DNA of 25,851 bases from a virus. Under the pieces are notes generated by a model. The model saw only the letters and a program-made list of their open reading frames with translations. It was not told the origin of the DNA and ran no database searches. The DNA lies in the UHGV virus genome UHGV-0280754, one strand, 5' to 3'. Positions 4,647 through 25,527 of the stretch are shown here, piece by piece. Position numbers and translations under genes: made by a program. Position 1 is the first letter of the stretch. Each line of letters opens with the position of its first letter.

Positions 4647-4940
4647 CCATGTAGGCATTACAAAGCCTATCTACGGGTGGGCTTGATAATGAAACCGGAA
4701 TTTATTCTGGGCAACCAGTTACGGCAGTACAGCGATACAACCCAAGCCAGTAAGTGGGGAAATAACACTGGCAGCCACTGAAAGATGAACCTCCAGCCTT
4801 ATGGCAAAAAAGATTCTTTGTGGTGGCGGACTGATGGAAAGACATCGGATAGAATAAAACAGTGGCTAGGGTAGCTCCCGAAAAGCGGAATCGTCACCGC
4901 CAGCCACTGAATCTATGACGAACAACTAGACGAGGTTGAT

Positions 4941-6015: not shown

Positions 6016-7424
6016 CCTCGATTAATCCTATCTTTGAACCGTTCATTGAGGCGCATCGCTACAAAGTTGCCAAAGGCGGTCGAGGTAGCGGTAAGTCATG
6101 GGCAATCGCGAGACTGCTTGTTGAAGCGGCGCGTCGGCAGCCAGTGCGTATTCTCTGCGCTCGTGAACTGCAAAACAGTATCAGCGATTCGGTAATCCGG
6201 CTGCTTGAAGACACCATAGAGCGTGAAGGGTATACGGCTGAGTTTGAAATTCAGCGTTCCATGATTCGTCATCTCGGAACGAATGCTGAGTTCATGTTCT
6301 ACGGCATCAAAAACAACCCGACGAAGATTAAATCGCTCGAAGGTATTGATATTTGCTGGGTGGAAGAAGCGGAAGCGGTAACGAAGGAATCATGGGATAT
6401 CCTGATACCAACCATCCGCAAGCCGTTTTCCGAAATATGGGTGAGCTTTAACCCGAAGAACATACTCGACGATACCTATCAGCGATTCGTTGTAAATCCT
6501 CCCGATGATATTTGCCTGCTGACGGTGAACTACACCGACAACCCGCATTTTCCTGAAGTTCTCCGTCTGGAGATGGAAGAGTGTAAACGCAGAAATCCGA
6601 CACTGTATCGTCACATCTGGCTTGGTGAGCCAGTGAGCGCAAGTGATATGGCAATCATCAAACGTGAATGGCTTGAAGCTGCAACCGATGCGCACAAGAA
6701 ACTCGGATGGAAAGCGAAAGGTGCGGTTGTCTCTGCGCATGACCCGTCAGATACAGGACCGGATGCTAAAGGTTACGCATCGCGTCACGGTTCGGTAGTT
6801 AAGCGCATTGCCGAAGGTCTGCTGATGGACATCAACGAGGGTGCTGACTGGGCTACTTCGCTGGCGATTGAAGACGGCGCTGACCATTACCTGTGGGATG
6901 GTGATGGTGTTGGTGCCGGGCTACGCAGACAGACAACGGAAGCGTTCTCCGGCAAGAAAATCACCGCCACGATGTTCAAAGGCAGCGAATCGCCATTCGA
7001 TGAAGATGCGCCGTATCAGGCCGGAGCATGGGCTGATGAAGTCGTACAGGGTGACAACGTTCGCACTATTGGCGATGTGTTTCGCAATAAGCGAGCGCAA
7101 TTCTATTACGCGCTGGCTGACAGGCTGTATCTGACATATCGGGCGGTTGTCCACGGTGAGTATGCAGACCCAGACGACATGCTGAGTTTCGACAAAGAAG
7201 CGATAGGCGAGAAGATGCTGGAGAAGCTGTTTGCAGAACTGACGCAGATTCAGCGCAAATTCAATAATAACGGGAAGCTGGAGCTTATGACTAAGGTCGA
7301 AATGAAGCAGAAGCTCGGTATTCCATCTCCTAACCTGGCTGATGCGCTGATGATGTGTATGCATTGCCCGGCATTGGTCCGCGAAGAAACAGAAATATAC
7401 GTTCCCTCATCCTCCGGTTGGTAA
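6012..7424 (+). CDS. Terminase large subunit (470 aa)
   Basis: N-terminal Walker A-like ATPase motif (KGGRGSGKS), Walker B-like ICWVEEAE, C-terminal nuclease-type acidic residues; 470 aa as in Sf6 gp2 (from memory). Confidence 0.92.
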   Translation: MTSINPIFEPFIEAHRYKVAKGGRGSGKSWAIARLLVEAARRQPVRILCARELQNSISDSVIRLLEDTIEREGYTAEFEIQRSMIRHLGTNAEFMFYGIKNNPTKIKSLEGIDICWVEEAEAVTKESWDILIPTIRKPFSEIWVSFNPKNILDDTYQRFVVNPPDDICLLTVNYTDNPHFPEVLRLEMEECKRRNPTLYRHIWLGEPVSASDMAIIKREWLEAATDAHKKLGWKAKGAVVSAHDPSDTGPDAKGYASRHGSVVKRIAEGLLMDINEGADWATSLAIEDGADHYLWDGDGVGAGLRRQTTEAFSGKKITATMFKGSESPFDEDAPYQAGAWADEVVQGDNVRTIGDVFRNKRAQFYYALADRLYLTYRAVVHGEYADPDDMLSFDKEAIGEKMLEKLFAELTQIQRKFNNNGKLELMTKVEMKQKLGIPSPNLADALMMCMHCPALVREETEIYVPSSSGW

Positions 7425-15004: not shown

Positions 15005-15697
15005 ATGTTATATGCATTTAAGCTGGGCAGAAAACTGCGCGGCGAGGAACCTTATTGCCCTGAAAAGGGTGGGAAAGGTGGCAGCTCTGATAAAAGCGCA
15101 AAGTATGCCGCAGAAGCTCAGAAGTATGCAGCAGACCTGCAAAATCAGCAGTTCAACACCATCATGAACAACCTGAAGCCGTTTACTCCTCTGGCTGAGA
15201 AGTATGTCGGCAGCCTCGAGAACTTATCGTCTCTGGAGGGGCAAGTTCAGGCACTTAACCAGTATTACAACTCTCAGCAGTATAAAGACCTTGCAGGTCA
15301 GGCTCGCTATCAGAGTCTGGCGGCAGCGGAAGCAACAGGTGGATTGGGTTCCACCGCAACCAGTAATCAGTTAGCAACAATCGCACCAACGCTTGGTCAG
15401 CAATGGCTATCTGGACAAATGAACAATTACAACAACCTGGCAAATATCGGTCTTGGCGCTCTTCAGGGACAGGCAAACGCCGGGCAAACATATGCCAACA
15501 ACATGAGTCAGATTTCGCAGCAAAGCGCAGCACTGGCGGCGGCAAACGCCAACCGACCGTCAGCATTGCAGCAGGGTGTTAGTGGTGCTGCATCCGGTGC
15601 GCTTTTGGGTGGTGGCATAGCCAGTGCTCTCGAGCTATCAACTCCGTGGGGGGCTGGTATTGGTGCTGGTCTTGGTCTGCTTGGTTCACTGTTTTAA
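15005..15697 (+). CDS. gp7-like ejection protein (230 aa)
   Basis: N-terminus MLYAFKLGRKLRGEEPYCPEKGGKGGSSDKSAKYAAEAQKYAADLQNQQF and Gly/Ala-rich C-terminus resemble P22 gp7 from memory. Confidence 0.8.
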   Translation: MLYAFKLGRKLRGEEPYCPEKGGKGGSSDKSAKYAAEAQKYAADLQNQQFNTIMNNLKPFTPLAEKYVGSLENLSSLEGQVQALNQYYNSQQYKDLAGQARYQSLAAAEATGGLGSTATSNQLATIAPTLGQQWLSGQMNNYNNLANIGLGALQGQANAGQTYANNMSQISQQSAALAAANANRPSALQQGVSGAASGALLGGGIASALELSTPWGAGIGAGLGLLGSLF

Positions 15698-19555: not shown

Positions 19556-19929
19556 ACCAACCTCCTTAGTTTTGCTCAGGATACCAGATGATACTTTATT
19601 GGTGGAGTGGTGTGTGAAAACGTGTCAACGACAAACCATCCACAACTTGGACGAATGATTTAGCAAAAAGTGCTATTTTTGGTGTTTGGTGTCATAGAAA
19701 AGTGAATAGCTCACTTTTCAACATTGCATGAAACTTGCAGGAAATGTGACATTACCTTATAGGTAACTTCGGCGAAAATGCAGTAAATGTGAAACGTAAT
19801 GGTTTAAACATGTCGCTAAAGTGGTTGTAAGTTAGCCTCCGAAGGATTGCTGATAGCTTTGTTATAGTATTAAATGACATTTGACATAGTTGGATACTTA
19901 GCTGTGGCTATCAAGATGGAGGTGTGTTC

Positions 19930-20373
19930 ATGCTTACTTGTTTTGATGTCGCCGACTACTTCCTGTCGCGGTGTGACGAGGATAGCGGTGACGCAATCTC
20001 TAATTTAAAATTACAAAAGCTTGTTTACTATGCTCAGGGTTTTTCATTGGCGTTGCTTGGCGAGCCTCTTTTTCAGAATAAGATGGAAGCTTGGATGCAT
20101 GGCCCTGTTGTCCCTGAGCTTTATCACCGTTATAAACAATATGGTAATGGTGCTATCCCTTCTCCAGAGTCTTTTGATGCTGAAAAATTCAGCGAAGAAC
20201 AGTTAGAGCTATTAGAAGAAGTCTGGGATGTTTTTGGGCAATTTTCTGCCTGGAAACTGAGGAACATGACACACGAAGAGTCACCATGGAGATCAAACTA
20301 TATTGAGGGTGTTGGTGGTTCTGAAATTAGTTCTAAGGAGATGGCAGAGTACTTTGCAACTCGGATTAACTAA
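19930..20373 (+). CDS. Panacea (DUF4065, SocA/GepA-like) domain protein (147 aa)
   Basis: GGAGGT 6 nt upstream of ATG 19930 (ORF-track entry starts at GTG 19924); motifs NLKLQKLVYYAQGF and EAWMHGPVVPELY are what I remember as hallmarks of the Panacea/COG3600 family; AT-rich relative to flanks. Confidence 0.75.
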   Translation: MLTCFDVADYFLSRCDEDSGDAISNLKLQKLVYYAQGFSLALLGEPLFQNKMEAWMHGPVVPELYHRYKQYGNGAIPSPESFDAEKFSEEQLELLEEVWDVFGQFSAWKLRNMTHEESPWRSNYIEGVGGSEISSKEMAEYFATRIN

Positions 20374-20377
20374 CGAG

Positions 20378-20797
20378 ATGGCAAGAAAATCTAAAAGGAT
20401 TATCCCCCCTGCTGAATCTACAGGTAAGTTAAAGTTAGGGCCGCAGTCAGGGGGGAATTCAGATCAAAAGAAACCGAAATTTTCATTCTGTTACATCCAA
20501 AGCTCTCACTGCATAACGAAATGCCAAAAAGATGAGAAAGCTGGCTTAGCTGATAAATTATACAGATTAAGTCAACTAACATGGGCAGATATTAAGCAGC
20601 AAGGTAGGCATAAGCTTGGATTTGAGAAGATTGCAAGGGGTGCAATTAAAGCAGGTATCCCCAGTCATATAACGGAAGACGTAGATCATTTCTTGGCTTT
20701 TAGATTTGATGATTTGAAAGCCATGGTTGGTTATCGTCTTGGATCGACATTTTTTGTTATATGGCTTGATAGAGAGTTCAACCTATACAAGCACTAA
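20378..20797 (+). CDS. Unrecognised 139-aa protein translationally coupled to the Panacea gene (candidate toxin/effector partner)
   Basis: ATG 4 nt after the Panacea stop; basic Pro/Gly-rich N-terminus (MARKSKRIIPPAESTGKLKLGPQSGG), Cys/His cluster (CYIQSSHCITKC), C-terminal GYRLGSTFFVIWLDREFNLYKH; the ORF-track start at 20303 is an out-of-frame overlap extension and was not used. Confidence 0.6.
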   Translation: MARKSKRIIPPAESTGKLKLGPQSGGNSDQKKPKFSFCYIQSSHCITKCQKDEKAGLADKLYRLSQLTWADIKQQGRHKLGFEKIARGAIKAGIPSHITEDVDHFLAFRFDDLKAMVGYRLGSTFFVIWLDREFNLYKH

Positions 20798-20825
20798 TAA
20801 AACCCACCGTCAGGTGGGTTTTTTG
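20797..20825. terminator. Bidirectional intrinsic terminator between the convergent partner gene and mnt
   Basis: A-run (20797-20800), stem AACCCACC (20801-20808) / GGTGGGTT (20813-20820), loop GTCA, T-run (20821-20825); the mnt stop codon lies inside the hairpin. Confidence 0.65.
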
Positions 20826-21061
20826 TACAAATCCTTCAGCGTATCAAACACCATCTTCCTAACAAGTTCGGACTGCTCATCAGCGATGCGTTCTGCATCG
20901 TCTCGATAGCCTGCAATCGGTGATGGTTTTGATAGCGCATCCTGAACGATTTGTAATAACTCTGAGTTCATTGACCTTCCGTTAGCCTCTGCTCTTAATT
21001 TCAATTTTTCTCTTACTTCCAAAGGCATACGGAAGTTAAAGTGCGGATCGTCTCTAGCCAT
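20810..21061 (-). CDS. mnt: Mnt repressor (ribbon-helix-helix, 83 aa)
   Basis: Product MARDDPHFNFRMPLEVREKLKLRAEANGRSMNSELLQIVQDALSKPSP... matches P22 Mnt nearly residue for residue as I recall it; same length. Confidence 0.92.
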   Translation of the reverse strand: MARDDPHFNFRMPLEVREKLKLRAEANGRSMNSELLQIVQDALSKPSPIAGYRDDAERIADEQSELVRKMVFDTLKDLYKKPT

Positions 21062-21084
21062 GCCATCACTCCAAGTTAGTATCT

Positions 21085-21342
21085 CTAACTTTCGTCTTTA
21101 TTGTTGCTATACATGCATTTCAACTTCTCAACATCATGTTCAAGATCTATCAATCGTGATGCTATAGTTGCAAGGTCTAGTGCTTGAATGTGTTTATTTT
21201 TTTCGGTCCATGCTTCAAGTGCCGCGACCATCTCAGCATTTAATGAACGAGAATTAGCCTCAGCCAGTTCAATAAGACGTTCCTTTATCTCTACAGGAAG
21301 CCTCAGATTCACTTGAGGGTTTTTGTACTTACGATCAGACAT
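21085..21342 (-). CDS. Second Mnt/Arc-family ribbon-helix-helix protein with C-terminal coiled coil (85 aa from ATG 21342; GTG 21348 also possible)
   Basis: RHH signature NLRLPVEIKERLIELAEANSRSLNAEMVAAL; AGGA 7 nt upstream of the ATG on the minus strand; directly upstream of and co-oriented with mnt (23-bp gap). Confidence 0.75.
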   Translation of the reverse strand: MSDRKYKNPQVNLRLPVEIKERLIELAEANSRSLNAEMVAALEAWTEKNKHIQALDLATIASRLIDLEHDVEKLKCMYSNNKDES

Positions 21343-21388
21343 CGGCACATCCTGAATAATTTTTTACCACAGGATATGTAGGTATCTA

Positions 21389-21417
21389 TTGACTATCAAT
21401 GCGTACCTAAATACTAT
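21389..21417 (+). promoter_or_regulatory. Pant-like rightward promoter: -35 TTGACT (21389-21394), 17-bp spacer, -10 TACTAT (21412-21417)
   Basis: Near-consensus hexamers with optimal spacing about 30 bp upstream of arc; overlapping palindrome TGTATG-N7-CATACA (21417-21435) and direct repeats ATGCGTACC (21399-21407, 21420-21428). Confidence 0.55.
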
Positions 21418-21447
21418 GTATGCGTACCACATACAACGGAGGATGCA

Positions 21448-21588
21448 ATGAAGGTAAAAACACTGCGTATGCCAGAGAAGTTAGAAAAAATCCTTGAAGA
21501 GAAAGCAAAGGAAGAGTGTCGCTCATTTAGTGCAGAAGTAATTAAACGGGTGATGGACAGCCTGAAGAGAGAGGGGATAACGGTATGA
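21448..21588 (+). CDS. arc: Arc-like ribbon-helix-helix repressor (46 aa)
   Basis: Hand translation MKVKTLRMPEKLEKILEEKAKEECRSFSAEVIKRVMDSLKREGITV aligns with P22 Arc (…PREVLDLVRKVAEENGRSVNSEIYQRVMESFKKEGRIGA, from memory); GGAGG 5 nt upstream; below the ORF-track size cut-off. Confidence 0.8.
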   Translation: MKVKTLRMPEKLEKILEEKAKEECRSFSAEVIKRVMDSLKREGITV

Positions 21589-21788
21589 GTAAAGAATGTT
21601 GTTTCTGCGGCATTAGCGAATCAGACGCTGATCAAACATACATTTACTCTAAAGAAACAGGTCGGATGCTGTGTAGTGACTGCGTGTTGGACATCATAAG
21701 ATACAAGCATCTTGGATGTTCTGCCAGCATTAGCAATATAGGTGAAGTATATGAAGGGAAAGATATAACTGATAGAGCAGAAAGTTGA
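21585..21788 (+). CDS. Small Cys-rich protein (67 aa), putative zinc-ribbon, between arc and ant
   Basis: ATGA overlap with arc stop; Cys pattern CCFCG ... CSDC; no family recognised. Confidence 0.5.
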   Translation: MSKECCFCGISESDADQTYIYSKETGRMLCSDCVLDIIRYKHLGCSASISNIGEVYEGKDITDRAES

Positions 21789-21851
21789 AGCCCCAACTGC
21801 GGTAACAGTCAGGGCTTCGGTATCGTAAAACCACGCATAGGAATTAACGAC
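21778..21851 (-). ncRNA. Putative sar-like small antisense RNA covering the ant ribosome-binding site and start codon
   Basis: Minus-strand promoter inside the ant 5' end: -35 TTGATA (complement of 21881-21886), 17-bp spacer, -10 TATACT (complement of 21858-21863); about 70 nt downstream on that strand lies a hairpin (21787-21818) followed by a U-rich tract; arrangement matches P22 sar (from memory). Confidence 0.4.
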
Positions 21852-22775
21852 ATGAAAAGTATAGCAACAGCAGTATCTACTATCAATGTACCATTCCACG
21901 GCGCAGAGCTTTATGTTGTCAATCACAACGGTGAGCCGTACACCCCAATGAAACCTATCGTTGAGGGAATGGGTATGGATTGGGCTTCACAGTTTACAAA
22001 GTTAAAACAAAGATTTGCTAAAGGTATTGTGGAAATCGCAATACCTTCAGTTGGCGGTGTGCAGAACATGATTTGCCTTGCTTTACGTAAACTTAATGGC
22101 TGGTTGCAAACCATCAGTCCTAACAAAGTCCGCCCTGAAATCCGCGACAATGTAATCCAGTATCAAGAAGAGTGTGACGATGTGCTATACGAGTACTGGA
22201 CTAAAGGCCATGTAGTTAACCCACGCAAAGCTAAAAAGGCGTTGCCGGGTAAAATCACCACTGAGCAGCAGGAAGCCATTAAACAACTCGTCATGAGTCG
22301 CGGTCAGTCTCTGCCAAAAGAAAAACAGGCTAAGGCGATGATCACCATGTGGTCGTCACTGAAATCCCATTTTGGATGTTCGTACAAAGAAATCAGTGAG
22401 GAGCAGTTTACCGAAGCACTGTCACTTGCAGCTCGAGTTCCACTTGAAGGTGAGTTCATTGGCAAACAAGAGAAGAAAACCGACGAGCTTTCTGCAAAAG
22501 AAGCAAACAGCCTTGTATGGTTATGGGATTATGCCAACCGCTCACAGGCATTATTCCGCGAACTGTATCCGGCGCTAAAACAAATTCAATCGAACTATTC
22601 CGGCAGATGCTACGACTACGGTCATGAATTCTCGTATGTTATCGGAATGGCGAGAGATGTTTTAATTAATCACACACGAGATGTTGATATCAATGAGCCA
22701 GACGGACCAACGAATCTTTCCGCATGGATGAGACTTAAGAATAAAGAATTACCTCCTTCAGTACATAACTACTGA
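21852..22775 (+). CDS. ant: Antirepressor Ant (307 aa)
   Basis: Position after arc and before the tailspike as in the P22 immI region; size close to P22 Ant; N-terminal region resembles the P22 antirepressor N-terminal domain from memory. Confidence 0.8.
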   Translation: MKSIATAVSTINVPFHGAELYVVNHNGEPYTPMKPIVEGMGMDWASQFTKLKQRFAKGIVEIAIPSVGGVQNMICLALRKLNGWLQTISPNKVRPEIRDNVIQYQEECDDVLYEYWTKGHVVNPRKAKKALPGKITTEQQEAIKQLVMSRGQSLPKEKQAKAMITMWSSLKSHFGCSYKEISEEQFTEALSLAARVPLEGEFIGKQEKKTDELSAKEANSLVWLWDYANRSQALFRELYPALKQIQSNYSGRCYDYGHEFSYVIGMARDVLINHTRDVDINEPDGPTNLSAWMRLKNKELPPSVHNY

Positions 22776-22794
22776 CAGATAACCAACGCAACGA

Positions 22795-22817
22795 CCCAGC
22801 TTCGGCTGGGTTTTTTT
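22795..22817 (+). terminator. Intrinsic terminator after ant
   Basis: Stem CCCAGC (22795-22800) / GCTGGG (22805-22810) with TTCG tetraloop followed by seven T (22811-22817). Confidence 0.7.
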
Positions 22818-22875: not shown

Positions 22876-25527
22876 ATGACAGACATTACAGCCAATGTGA
22901 TTGTATCGATGCCTTCTCAACTCTTCACTATGGCGCGTTCTTTTAAAGCCGTAGCCAATGGCGAAATTTATATCGGGAAAATTGACACTGACCCGGTAAA
23001 TCCTGAAAACCGGGTTCAGGTTTATGTAGAGAACGAAGACGGCTCTCGCGTTCCTGTTTCGCAACCAATCATCATTAACGCTGCTGGATATCCGGTATAT
23101 AACGGACAGATTGCCAAATTCGTAACCGTGCAAGGCCATTCTATGGCTGTTTACGATGCTTATGGGGCGCAGCAGTTCTATTTTCCAAACATTCTGAAAT
23201 ATGATCCTGATCAGTTTAAACAAGAACTAGAGAATAAGTTTAACAATGGTTCAACTCCATCAATTATAAATTATAAGTACGGTCTTCCAGAAGAAGTAGA
23301 CGGAGCAACACAAAGGACGCTACAGGATAAACTTGATGACCATGTAAATGTTCGCGATTTTGGTGCAAAAGGGGATGGCATTACTGACGATACAGACGCA
23401 ATAACAAATGCCATCATTTACTGCGCATCTAACGGAAAACGCCTGAAGTGGGATTCTGGTGTGTATTTGATTAGCCGCATAAAATGCGGCGGGGATAATT
23501 ATAACTATGACTGGGTAGCTGATGGCAAGGTTGTCTTAAAGTCAACCGCAAAAGAGCCTCTTGGTCCAAACTGGATTGATGATTATTTCATAAGACTCGA
23601 AGGTGGAGATGCCACGCCAATTGACTATAATTCAACAATAAATCCTGGTGACACATCAATATCAATTAACTCAGCATATTCTGTTGATGCAGGCGATATA
23701 ATTATGATTCATGGCAATCGCTTAATTCAGACAGATAATAGAGGACAGGCTTGTGAAGGTGAAATGCATGTTGTTACTGCTTTTGATAATGCAACAAAAA
23801 AAGCGGAGATATCAGGTGCATTTTATTTTTTCTACTCTGCGAGCAATGATTACTCAACGACCGTAACAGCATCTGTATCCGGAGGTGAATTCTCATTTGG
23901 TAATGATGCAACATTAACAAAACAATACAATCAGGTAAAAGTAACAGGTGTCACCGGAGCTAACGCCGGAATATCAAGATACATAACTCATTGGGATTAC
24001 GACACTAAAACAGCAAAATTTGAATATGCTCAGGGACCATTCCCGTTTAAACCATCTGTTGGAGACGTGTTTAAAATCACAAGAAAGGCAAATATATATA
24101 AAAGAAAACCATGCTACGGCAGAATTGTCGGTGATTTCAATTTTGAAAGACCTGTCACGCAGAACGCATCTCCTGGTGATTTGGGGTTCCGTGGTCTTGT
24201 GATAGATGGCGCTGTTGATATGCATATAGAAGGAATAAAACTAATCGGCTTTTCAGAAACTGGAATTTTTCTTGAGTCATGCTACAGAACGAAAATAATA
24301 GAACCATATATTGAATACTCAAACCGTGCATATGATTTAACAAACGGCACTGGTTATGGTGTTGAAATATACAATAGCAGCTATTGCACAGTCGTGGATA
24401 TGATAGCATTTGCTTGCAGGAGGGGGCTTGATGTAAGCGGGACTCAAATGGTATCACTGTATAATAACATTATAAATCCAACGATGATTGGTGGTGGAAC
24501 TGCATATGATGGAGTTAAATTTTTCCCTGATGGCGATACAAGAAATTCATGTTGCGGTGGACACGGCCCATCATACGAAACAACTTTTACAGGCGGAAAT
24601 TCAGTCAATTTGTATTATGCTGGTGTAATACGCGGATTAAATGAAGTGTATGATGGAATGAACGCCAGGGGATTTAGCGGCCCGGCTCCTTTTTTTGTAA
24701 GATATAGTGGTGGTGGGTTCACGATTCAGAACTGTAATTATATTGATGGTTTTACTGAGATGTCTTTGCCATACAACTTGAGGTACAAACCTGTGAATGC
24801 AACTCAACGTAATCACAGACCTCTTGTTTTTATTGAAACAACTCTGGCACAGACAGACAGAAACTCTTACTATAAAGAACTTCCTGTTGTTATTAAGAAT
24901 AATACCGCAAGGACTGTTCTCAAGGGCTTTTTACGTTTTGAGGTTAATGATGGCCTCACCCCTCTAATCCAAAATATTTATTTTGGTGGTAATTTATGCA
25001 TGGCGAACCCAGAAACATCAGATTCTGTATCAGGGCAAACAGAGGCAGTAATGGTTTATTCATCTGTTCCTGGTGCAATAATTGTTCGAAATTTCCATGA
25101 TCTTGGCGGTAACAGAATTGTTCCTGTTGGAGCAGGATACAGATACTGCGGTATGTTCAACACGCCAGATGGAATAGCAGGAACAATAGTTCAACCAGAC
25201 GGAAAATATCTAATAACACTTGAAGCAAACAAATCTACAAGTATCCTTGTTGGTGGATACGTCCCATGTGTTCGCCTTGATATGCACGACATACTTGATA
25301 TTCATGGGGTAATTGCAGTTGGTGTTCTTATTCATCGTGGTGAGGCAATTGATTTTTCTCCTTTAAAAGAAATTAATAAGCAAAATGTTGTATTGAAAAC
25401 CGGAGTTCTTTCAGATAATGATGGTGATGAAAATAACTTAAATATTTCGTTTGACTTTGCAACCATATATTTAAGCAACAAGATGCCAAATAAGATTCAA
25501 CTATCTATTGAAGTATCAGGAGTGTAA
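22876..25527 (+). CDS. Tailspike protein (883 aa): P22-type N-terminal head-binding domain plus right-handed beta-helix (pectate-lyase-fold) receptor-binding/glycanase body
   Basis: Residues 1-~110 (MTDITANVIVSMPSQLFTMARSFKAVANGEIYIGKIDTDPVNPEN...VTVQGHSMAVYDAYG...LKYDPDQ) match the P22 gp9 N-terminal domain from memory; downstream NVRDFGAKGDGITDDTDAITNAI is the classic beta-helix glycosidase motif; GGAG upstream. Confidence 0.92.
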   Translation: MTDITANVIVSMPSQLFTMARSFKAVANGEIYIGKIDTDPVNPENRVQVYVENEDGSRVPVSQPIIINAAGYPVYNGQIAKFVTVQGHSMAVYDAYGAQQFYFPNILKYDPDQFKQELENKFNNGSTPSIINYKYGLPEEVDGATQRTLQDKLDDHVNVRDFGAKGDGITDDTDAITNAIIYCASNGKRLKWDSGVYLISRIKCGGDNYNYDWVADGKVVLKSTAKEPLGPNWIDDYFIRLEGGDATPIDYNSTINPGDTSISINSAYSVDAGDIIMIHGNRLIQTDNRGQACEGEMHVVTAFDNATKKAEISGAFYFFYSASNDYSTTVTASVSGGEFSFGNDATLTKQYNQVKVTGVTGANAGISRYITHWDYDTKTAKFEYAQGPFPFKPSVGDVFKITRKANIYKRKPCYGRIVGDFNFERPVTQNASPGDLGFRGLVIDGAVDMHIEGIKLIGFSETGIFLESCYRTKIIEPYIEYSNRAYDLTNGTGYGVEIYNSSYCTVVDMIAFACRRGLDVSGTQMVSLYNNIINPTMIGGGTAYDGVKFFPDGDTRNSCCGGHGPSYETTFTGGNSVNLYYAGVIRGLNEVYDGMNARGFSGPAPFFVRYSGGGFTIQNCNYIDGFTEMSLPYNLRYKPVNATQRNHRPLVFIETTLAQTDRNSYYKELPVVIKNNTARTVLKGFLRFEVNDGLTPLIQNIYFGGNLCMANPETSDSVSGQTEAVMVYSSVPGAIIVRNFHDLGGNRIVPVGAGYRYCGMFNTPDGIAGTIVQPDGKYLITLEANKSTSILVGGYVPCVRLDMHDILDIHGVIAVGVLIHRGEAIDFSPLKEINKQNVVLKTGVLSDNDGDENNLNISFDFATIYLSNKMPNKIQLSIEVSGV

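Follow-up and report, generated by a model that had tools for sequence, protein, structure and literature searches.

The region just upstream of ant in the window (the whole stretch of 25,851 nt analyzed, from virus genome UHGV-0280754) probably encodes, on its minus strand, a homologue of the sar RNA of phage P22, a putative antisense repressor of ant. We estimate the probability of this reading at about 0.9. Judging from its sequence, the surrounding cassette is the immunity-I region (mnt, arc, ant) of a CUS-3-like, P22-type prophage of E. coli. The element itself is ordinary: it belongs to a long-known, curated RNA family and is found by routine scanning with Rfam. By analogy with P22, we infer that its promoter fires, where the RNA begins and ends, and that ant is repressed.

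When the whole window is scanned with Rfam, the sar RNA family (RF00262) matches the minus strand at 21783..21850 with 85.7 bits (E = 5.2e-17), against a gathering score of 43. The match covers positions 1-68 of the 68 in the model, and sar is the only Rfam family that reaches its gathering score here. With the same model, the sar genes annotated in P22 and epsilon34 score 97.8 and 95.6 bits. Among phages fetched by DNA similarity, RF00262 also matches CUS-3 (84.6 bits, with one base different in the loop of hairpin II, UCCC in CUS-3 and UACC in the window), phiv205-1, PhiR12_1, Emek, SPN3UB, and TL-2011b. A covariance model which we built from P22-type sequences gives 53.2 bits for the window sar. 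The initial annotation had proposed a sar-like RNA at this place. Its reading is supported by the full-length match to RF00262, by a spacing equal to that of P22 and epsilon34, by the P22-type antirepressor which would be the target, and by the arc- and mnt-like genes found upstream.

As in the immI region of P22, genes for mnt- and arc-type repressors appear to lie around divergent promoters and to be followed by a P22-type antirepressor gene (Table 1). The cassette has the ejection-protein genes on one side and the tailspike gene on the other, and the mnt, arc, sar/ant, tailspike context is the same as in P22. The divergent promoter-like pair corresponds in position to Pant and Pmnt of P22, and the terminator 3' of ant lies where P22 has its ant terminator. 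In the CUS-3 record, the counterparts of both mnt-type genes are labelled mnt, and the antirepressor gene is labelled ant. The window ant also matches phrog_245 ('anti-repressor Ant', 1e-99). In an identical E. coli locus, PGAP names the arc-like gene 'Arc family DNA-binding protein'.

Table 1. Features of the putative immunity-I region and its surroundings, in window coordinates.
Feature	Position	Strand	Size	Basis and description
mnt (P22 Mnt-like)	20810-21061	-	83 aa	Pfam Arc 1e-27, Repressor_Mnt 1.6e-17
Second mnt-type ribbon-helix-helix repressor gene	21085-21348	-	87 aa	Pfam Arc 3e-10
Divergent promoter-like pair	21371-21417	both		Promoter scan, consensus matches only
Leftward promoter-like site	21399-21371	-		Promoter scan; TTGATA-17-TATCCT
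Pant-like site	21389-21417	+		Promoter scan; TTGACT-17-TACTAT
arc-like ribbon-helix-helix repressor gene	21448-21588	+	46 aa	Pfam Arc PF03869 2.9e-9
Cys-rich ORF	21585-21788	+	67 aa	phrog_7150 3.4e-50, full length
sar antisense RNA gene (predicted)	21783..21851	-	69 nt	RF00262; ends by homology to the P22 annotation
sar stem-loop II (predicted terminator)	21787..21818	-		14 bp including three G·U, UACC loop
sar stem-loop I	21822..21851	-	nt 1-30 of sar	Fold and Rfam structure line; helix GUCGU.AA / UUACGAU
ant ribosome-binding region	21839-21854	+		SD AGGA 21839-21842, 9-nt spacer, ATG 21852-21854
ant (antirepressor)	21852-22775	+	307 aa	Pfam P22_AR_N 3.2e-44, P22_AR_C 1.6e-29
Psar promoter	21858..21886	-		TTGATA (21886-21881), 17-nt spacer ending TGc, TATACT (21863-21858)
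Intrinsic terminator 3' of ant	22793-22812	+		Terminator scan; 8-bp stem then TTTTTATT
Tailspike gene	22876-25527	+		P22 head-binding N-terminus

Transcription from Psar, which lies within the first ant codons, would run leftward from about G21851 and stop near 21783, past the 14-bp hairpin; the resulting RNA, of some 69 nt, would be close to the 70 nt expected in the initial annotation. The start is most likely G21851, since the P22 sar begins one base ahead of the ATG. G21851 lies 7 nt past the -10 hexamer and directly precedes the ant ATG. The predicted 3' end is AACU, at 21783 or possibly 1-2 nt further. The RNA had been expected to cross both the start codon and the SD of ant: the SD is indeed covered, together with the 5' UTR up to position -1, but the AUG itself is excluded. 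The SD AGGA is inside the sar element and is fully complementary to sar nt 10-13. Complementarity between sar and the ant leader is perfect, as expected of transcripts from opposite strands of the same DNA.

The geometry is that of the P22 sar region, as had been suggested. In the P22 RefSeq record, sar is annotated at 15021-15090, its terminator at 15021-15058, ant from 15091, and Psar at 15097-15125. The 5' end of sar at -1 of ant and the offset of Psar from the ATG are the same in the window, and the spacing of the annotated Psar, sar, and ant of epsilon34 is also the same. Hairpin II (32 nt) and the AACUUU which follows it are identical in P22 and the window. The first 30 nt are different, GUCGUUAAUUCCUAUGCGUGGUUUUACGAU in the window and GUUGGUUUUUCUCCAAGGAUUUACUGAC in P22, with pairing largely kept; in the window they accompany an ant 5' UTR and N-terminus which differ from those of P22. 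The window sar is 1 nt longer than that of P22. At its 3' end, the P22 sar overlaps the stop codon of arc, while that of the window overlaps the stop codon of the Cys-rich ORF.

The near-consensus promoter reported on the minus strand within the first 35 nt of ant was found again by our promoter scan. It has 10 of 12 consensus matches plus a TG extended -10, and it occupies ant codons 3-12, about +6 to +35 of the gene. Its -35 hexamer, TTGATA, is closer to consensus than the GTGTTA of P22. The extended -10, TTGCTATACT, is identical to that of P22 and invariant in seven of nine aligned phages. Among the matches listed in the census described below, 106 of 124 loci have TATACT as their -10, and TTGC stands before the -10 in 119 of 124. 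This hexamer is encoded by ant codons 3 and 4, where the rare codons AGT and ATA are used. Among the same matches, all 90 Ile residues at codon 4 are encoded by ATA, compared with 7.2% of the Ile codons elsewhere in the same genes, and AGT encodes 97 of the 104 Ser residues at codon 3, compared with 9.9% elsewhere. The rare codons are kept in at least five different Ant N-terminal types. It is therefore the nucleotide sequence which is constrained, rather than the protein, as one would expect of a promoter.

The predicted 69-nt RNA folds into two hairpins with -29.8 kcal/mol and a z-score of -6.2, none of 200 shuffled sequences folding as well, and the minimum-free-energy fold coincides with the centroid fold. 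With this z-score and an Rfam E-value of 5e-17, the complete element greatly exceeds what chance would give. The shape of RF00262 consists of two hairpins, one at the 5' side with about 6 bp and a large loop and one at the 3' side with 14 bp and a tetraloop, and both are found in the window. The P22 sar folds in the same way (-29.5 kcal/mol), also with the anti-SD in hairpin I. In the window, hairpin I has one U·U mismatch in its helix and would display the anti-SD UUCCU, complementary to the ant SD, in or next to its loop. Hairpin II is where the initial annotation placed it, but the shape described there (a 7-bp stem, an internal loop, a 4-bp stem, and a hexaloop) is that of the plus-strand fold; the minus strand forms 14 bp closed by a 4-nt loop. 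It is followed by AACUUUCU. The U-rich tract reported after the hairpin is present but only weakly U-rich: the sequence past the stem is AACUUUCUGCUCU, the tail has only UUUCU, and a generic terminator scan makes no call on hairpin II with its tail. The first six nt of this tail, AACUUU, match the tail of the annotated sar terminator of P22.

We have also looked at the distribution of the element. An exact-pattern scan of IMG/VR for the hairpin gave at least 120 stretches. Among the matches listed, an ant-like ORF begins 30-34 nt downstream of the hairpin in 124 of the 126 loci with enough flank, and all 17 sequence-distinct sar variants fold into the same two-hairpin shape. With the model built from P22-type sequences only, 101 of the listed matches were aligned, 59 of them distinct. 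In these 59 sequences, all six pairs of helix I vary on both sides. About 96-98.8% of paired cells can pair, compared with 33-44% when the partners are slid, in an alignment which is itself fitted to the structure of the model; none of 500 shuffles reaches the observed covariation score. Pair counts were taken from this alignment, while a MAFFT alignment, which left helix I out of register, was set aside. The invariance of helix II is partly due to the choice of loci by an exact hairpin pattern, and the loci of the census are not independent, as they share ancestry and exchange modules. Over the many ant alleles of the census, Psar receives clean comparative support from the rare codons, and hairpin I from covariation.

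The same census bears on a different view of the hairpin, as mainly a recombination 'boundary sequence' of P22-like phages, next to a minus-strand promoter that is silent or irrelevant here. The CUS-3 GenBank record labels 6505-6986, the stretch with arc, the Cys-rich ORF, and sar, as 'bsq2; boundary sequence'. Among the matches listed, the 32-nt hairpin is almost invariant amid mosaic DNA, with eight unrelated ORF families on its left and at least five ant/UTR types on its right, and Emek-type loci have a degraded -10, TAAGCT. A pure recombination joint, however, leaves unexplained the covariation of all six pairs of helix I, the -10 held in rare codons, and the strand-specific G·U pairs, and the window promoter is closer to consensus than the Psar of P22, which is functional. 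We consider it very unlikely that the hairpin is mainly a boundary. The two roles are not mutually exclusive.

The G·U pairs of hairpin II also help to decide which strand is active. The hairpin could belong to the sense strand, as a 5'-UTR element of the ant mRNA (a processing site, a stabiliser, or an attenuator of read-through from Pant/Plate toward ant and the tailspike gene), and not to an antisense RNA. In fact, the plus strand can form a hairpin at 21787-21818 as well, and its SD can be included in a second, weak hairpin. Nevertheless, its fold is much weaker (-20.2 against -29.8 kcal/mol, with z-scores of -2.0 and -6.2), no U tract follows it, and the conserved G·U pairs of the minus strand correspond there to an A·C/C·A internal loop. 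These G·U positions pair in the minus-strand RNA only and are kept across the family, which argues that the minus-strand transcript is the structured molecule; this asymmetry would also explain read-through of rightward ant transcripts. Besides, the P22 sar has been experimentally characterised as a minus-strand RNA, and some structure in a target mRNA complementary to sar is expected anyway, in agreement with the antisense model. A sense-strand element is highly improbable.

Promoter matches alone are not above chance: we found 3 promoter-like sites in 2.3 kb, compared with 5.0 +/- 2.4 in shuffled sequences, and TTGCTATACT with at most one mismatch occurs twice in this AT-rich region, compared with 1.7 expected. 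Still, a fortuitous promoter beside an unrelated hairpin is effectively refuted by the RF00262 matches (E = 5e-17 in the window), by a position kept in more than 120 loci, and by the covariation of helix I. A TTG-initiated minus-strand ORF of 25 aa does exist at 21809-21886; it is unsupported as a gene, and its first codon would lie upstream of the predicted start of transcription.

If the element acts as the sar of P22, its RNA, which is the exact complement of the 69 nt preceding the ant AUG, would pair with this leader, occlude the ribosome-binding site, and block the translation of Ant. The antirepressor would then be kept low in late infection and during the establishment of lysogeny, as in P22. 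The P22 sar is a 68/69-nt RNA which pairs with the ant mRNA and blocks translation initiation (PMC12197685); it is needed for proper lysogeny (PMC12197685; PMC2629481; PMC11016777), and sar reads have been detected in P22 infection (PMC13397905). The primary work is that of Liao et al. 1987, Wu et al. 1987, and Schaefer & McClure 1997, as cited in PMC2629481 and PMC12197685. The OOP RNA of lambda, the anti-Q RNA, and the sas RNA of P22 are also short promoter-to-terminator antisense transcripts, which overlap the start or the end of a regulatory gene and tune the choice between lysis and lysogeny (PMC12197685; PMC13397905). They differ from sar in sequence, target, and Rfam family.

The extra Cys-rich gene noted between arc and the antisense terminator is real, though not unusual. 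Its ATG overlaps the stop codon of arc (ATGA), its TGA is at the base of the sar hairpin, and its last 6 nt overlap the 3' end of sar. The cysteines form the pattern CxxC(21)CxxC. We have detected two homologues, P0002 and P0014, and distant homologues keep the four cysteines. When 1.84 billion representatives were searched with phmmer, most matches were long, repetitive Cys-rich proteins, apparently compositional, with a single credible homologue, P0014 (68 aa). The window protein has no match in Pfam or NCBIfam. The best PDB match of the family profile is the N-terminal zinc-binding domain of ClpX, a weak one (E = 0.008). An hhalign comparison gives 68% probability with the N-terminus of E. 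coli ClpX, for which an approximate sequence was used, and 85% with the ORF found at the same position in another phage. This latter ORF is a clear Pfam zf-C4_ClpX (PF06689, 43 bits with a cut-off of 27). The AlphaFold (AF2) model of the Cys-rich ORF is poor (pLDDT 59), and a Foldseek search of PDB with it gave only generic zinc-finger/RING matches, with E > 0.1. A count of synonymous and non-synonymous changes among close copies found 4 differing sites, too few to be informative. As a lead only, the Cys-rich ORF may possibly be a ClpX-type zinc ribbon.

Other loci have other contents at this place. Among the matches listed there are 99 distinct upstream contexts: in 50 of them arc ends at the hairpin, in 37 arc is followed by one of eight unrelated small ORFs placed before the hairpin, 4 have a truncated Cys-rich ORF, and 8 have no ORF of at least 30 aa. 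In the same matches, every ORF upstream of the hairpin ends with a TAA or TGA which is part of the conserved sequence at the foot of the hairpin. The junction between arc and sar is a position where small cargo genes are exchanged. We have considered a broader proposal: the sar terminator hairpin would double as a fixed recombination joint, and several of the cargo genes, including the Cys-rich ORF, would be stand-alone ClpX-type zinc ribbons, perhaps mimics or competitors of the domain of host ClpX on which substrates and adaptors dock. We regard this as rather unlikely. If it were true, the cargo would be co-transcribed with ant from Pant and would end on the stop codon of the hairpin base, and a cargo that mimics ClpX might, speculatively, tune the stability of phage or host regulators in the decision between lysis and lysogeny.

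From arc to the start of ant, the window is about 97.6-100% identical to CUS-3 (CP000711, an E. coli K1 phage) and to E. coli prophages such as those of STEC346 and UTI89: the locus is 100% identical in the STEC346 prophage, and identity is 97.6-99% for CUS-3. At least part of the 651-bp query covering this interval is matched in 679 of 5426 complete genomes. In the CUS-3 and E. coli prophage records we examined, sar is unannotated. PGAP annotates arc and ant and leaves sar and the Cys-rich ORF without annotation, and the CUS-3 record has no annotation for the Cys-rich ORF either. A comparison published in 2008 considered that CUS-3-type phages apparently lack arc and hence control ant in a different way (PMC2629481). 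In CUS-3 the arc-like ORF is intact and the Cys-rich ORF is identical, so the remark on the absence of arc appears to reflect an annotation gap.

In summary, these results have little general significance in biology: sar is already a textbook case of cis-antisense RNA. The new points are minor, namely an unannotated copy, a CUS-3-type cassette more complete than had been stated, and the cargo position between arc and sar. Extraintestinal pathogenic E. coli commonly harbour CUS-3-type prophages, which, judging from the above matches, carry a complete arc-sar-ant circuit left unannotated in public records.

The CUS-3 GenBank record (CP000711) carries only the label 'bsq2 boundary sequence' for a region where an arc-like gene, which is intact, lies together with the Cys-rich ORF and sar. 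The absence of arc from CUS-3 was inferred in a 2008 paper (PMC2629481); an arc-like ORF with a Pfam Arc match is present in this phage. PGAP annotation of E. coli STEC346 includes neither sar nor the Cys-rich ORF. The positions of these and other features are collected in the table.

Features in the window and in compared sequences
Feature	Sequence	Position	Strand
ORF with Panacea label, left of mnt	window	19924-20373	+
Second ORF, directly left of mnt	window	20303-20797	+
Two tandem mnt-type genes	window	20810-21348	-
Back-to-back promoter-like pair with 9 nt direct repeat	window	21371-21440	
Small Cys-rich ORF upstream of sar hairpin	window	21585-21788	+
Small ORFs upstream of sar hairpin	L059, L034, L050		
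int-alpA RNA (RF02996) match	window	4859-4921	+
'bsq2 boundary sequence'	CUS-3	2511-2992 (in L001)	
Second sar-like element	L035	4268-4337	+
Second sar-like element	L108	8365-8431	+

Across different P22-like phages, the interval between arc and the sar hairpin contains at least eight unrelated families of small ORFs, three or four of which are CxxC...CxxC zinc ribbons. The 60 amino acid ORF of L059 is a clear match to zf-C4_ClpX (Pfam, 4e-11), and the best PDB match for the family of the 67 amino acid ORF in the window, a weak one, is the ClpX N-terminal domain.

P22 has one mnt gene, while the window has two ribbon-helix-helix genes of this type at the same place: the gene farther from the promoters is almost the same as P22 Mnt, and the promoter-proximal one is a different allele. 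The promoter-like pair between them and arc has overlapping -35 hexamers; in P22, Pant and Pmnt overlap almost fully. Around the Pant-like -10 there are two copies of a 9 nt direct repeat, ATGCGTACC, at a distance of 21 bp; they may form an operator for the divergent Arc/Mnt alleles.

CUS-3 has other genes in place of the two ORFs left of mnt. The first of the two ORFs is called a 'Panacea domain-containing protein' by PGAP in the identical E. coli locus. This domain occurs in antitoxins, and the pair may be toxin-antitoxin or defence cargo in the 'ant moron'. Elsewhere in the window, the int-alpA RNA match reaches 42.0 bits (E 1e-5; Rfam gathering threshold 35.8); compared with the model, the sequence has several deletions.

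Phage Emek and seven similar IMG/VR loci among the matches listed have TAAGCT as the Psar -10, and their ant starts with MSSLA and encodes an N-terminus of the KilA-N type. The hairpins of these loci are intact, but sar may be defunct there or expressed only weakly.

The covariance model built only from P22-type sar sequences also detects divergent second elements in L035 (28 bits) and L108 (25.5 bits), in which hairpin II differs in sequence and retains its pairing. Directly downstream of each is another ant-like gene (MNIVAKS...), preceded by a TATTGTAGCAA-type motif, as at the first cassette. Some phages therefore seem to have two sar/ant-like cassettes.
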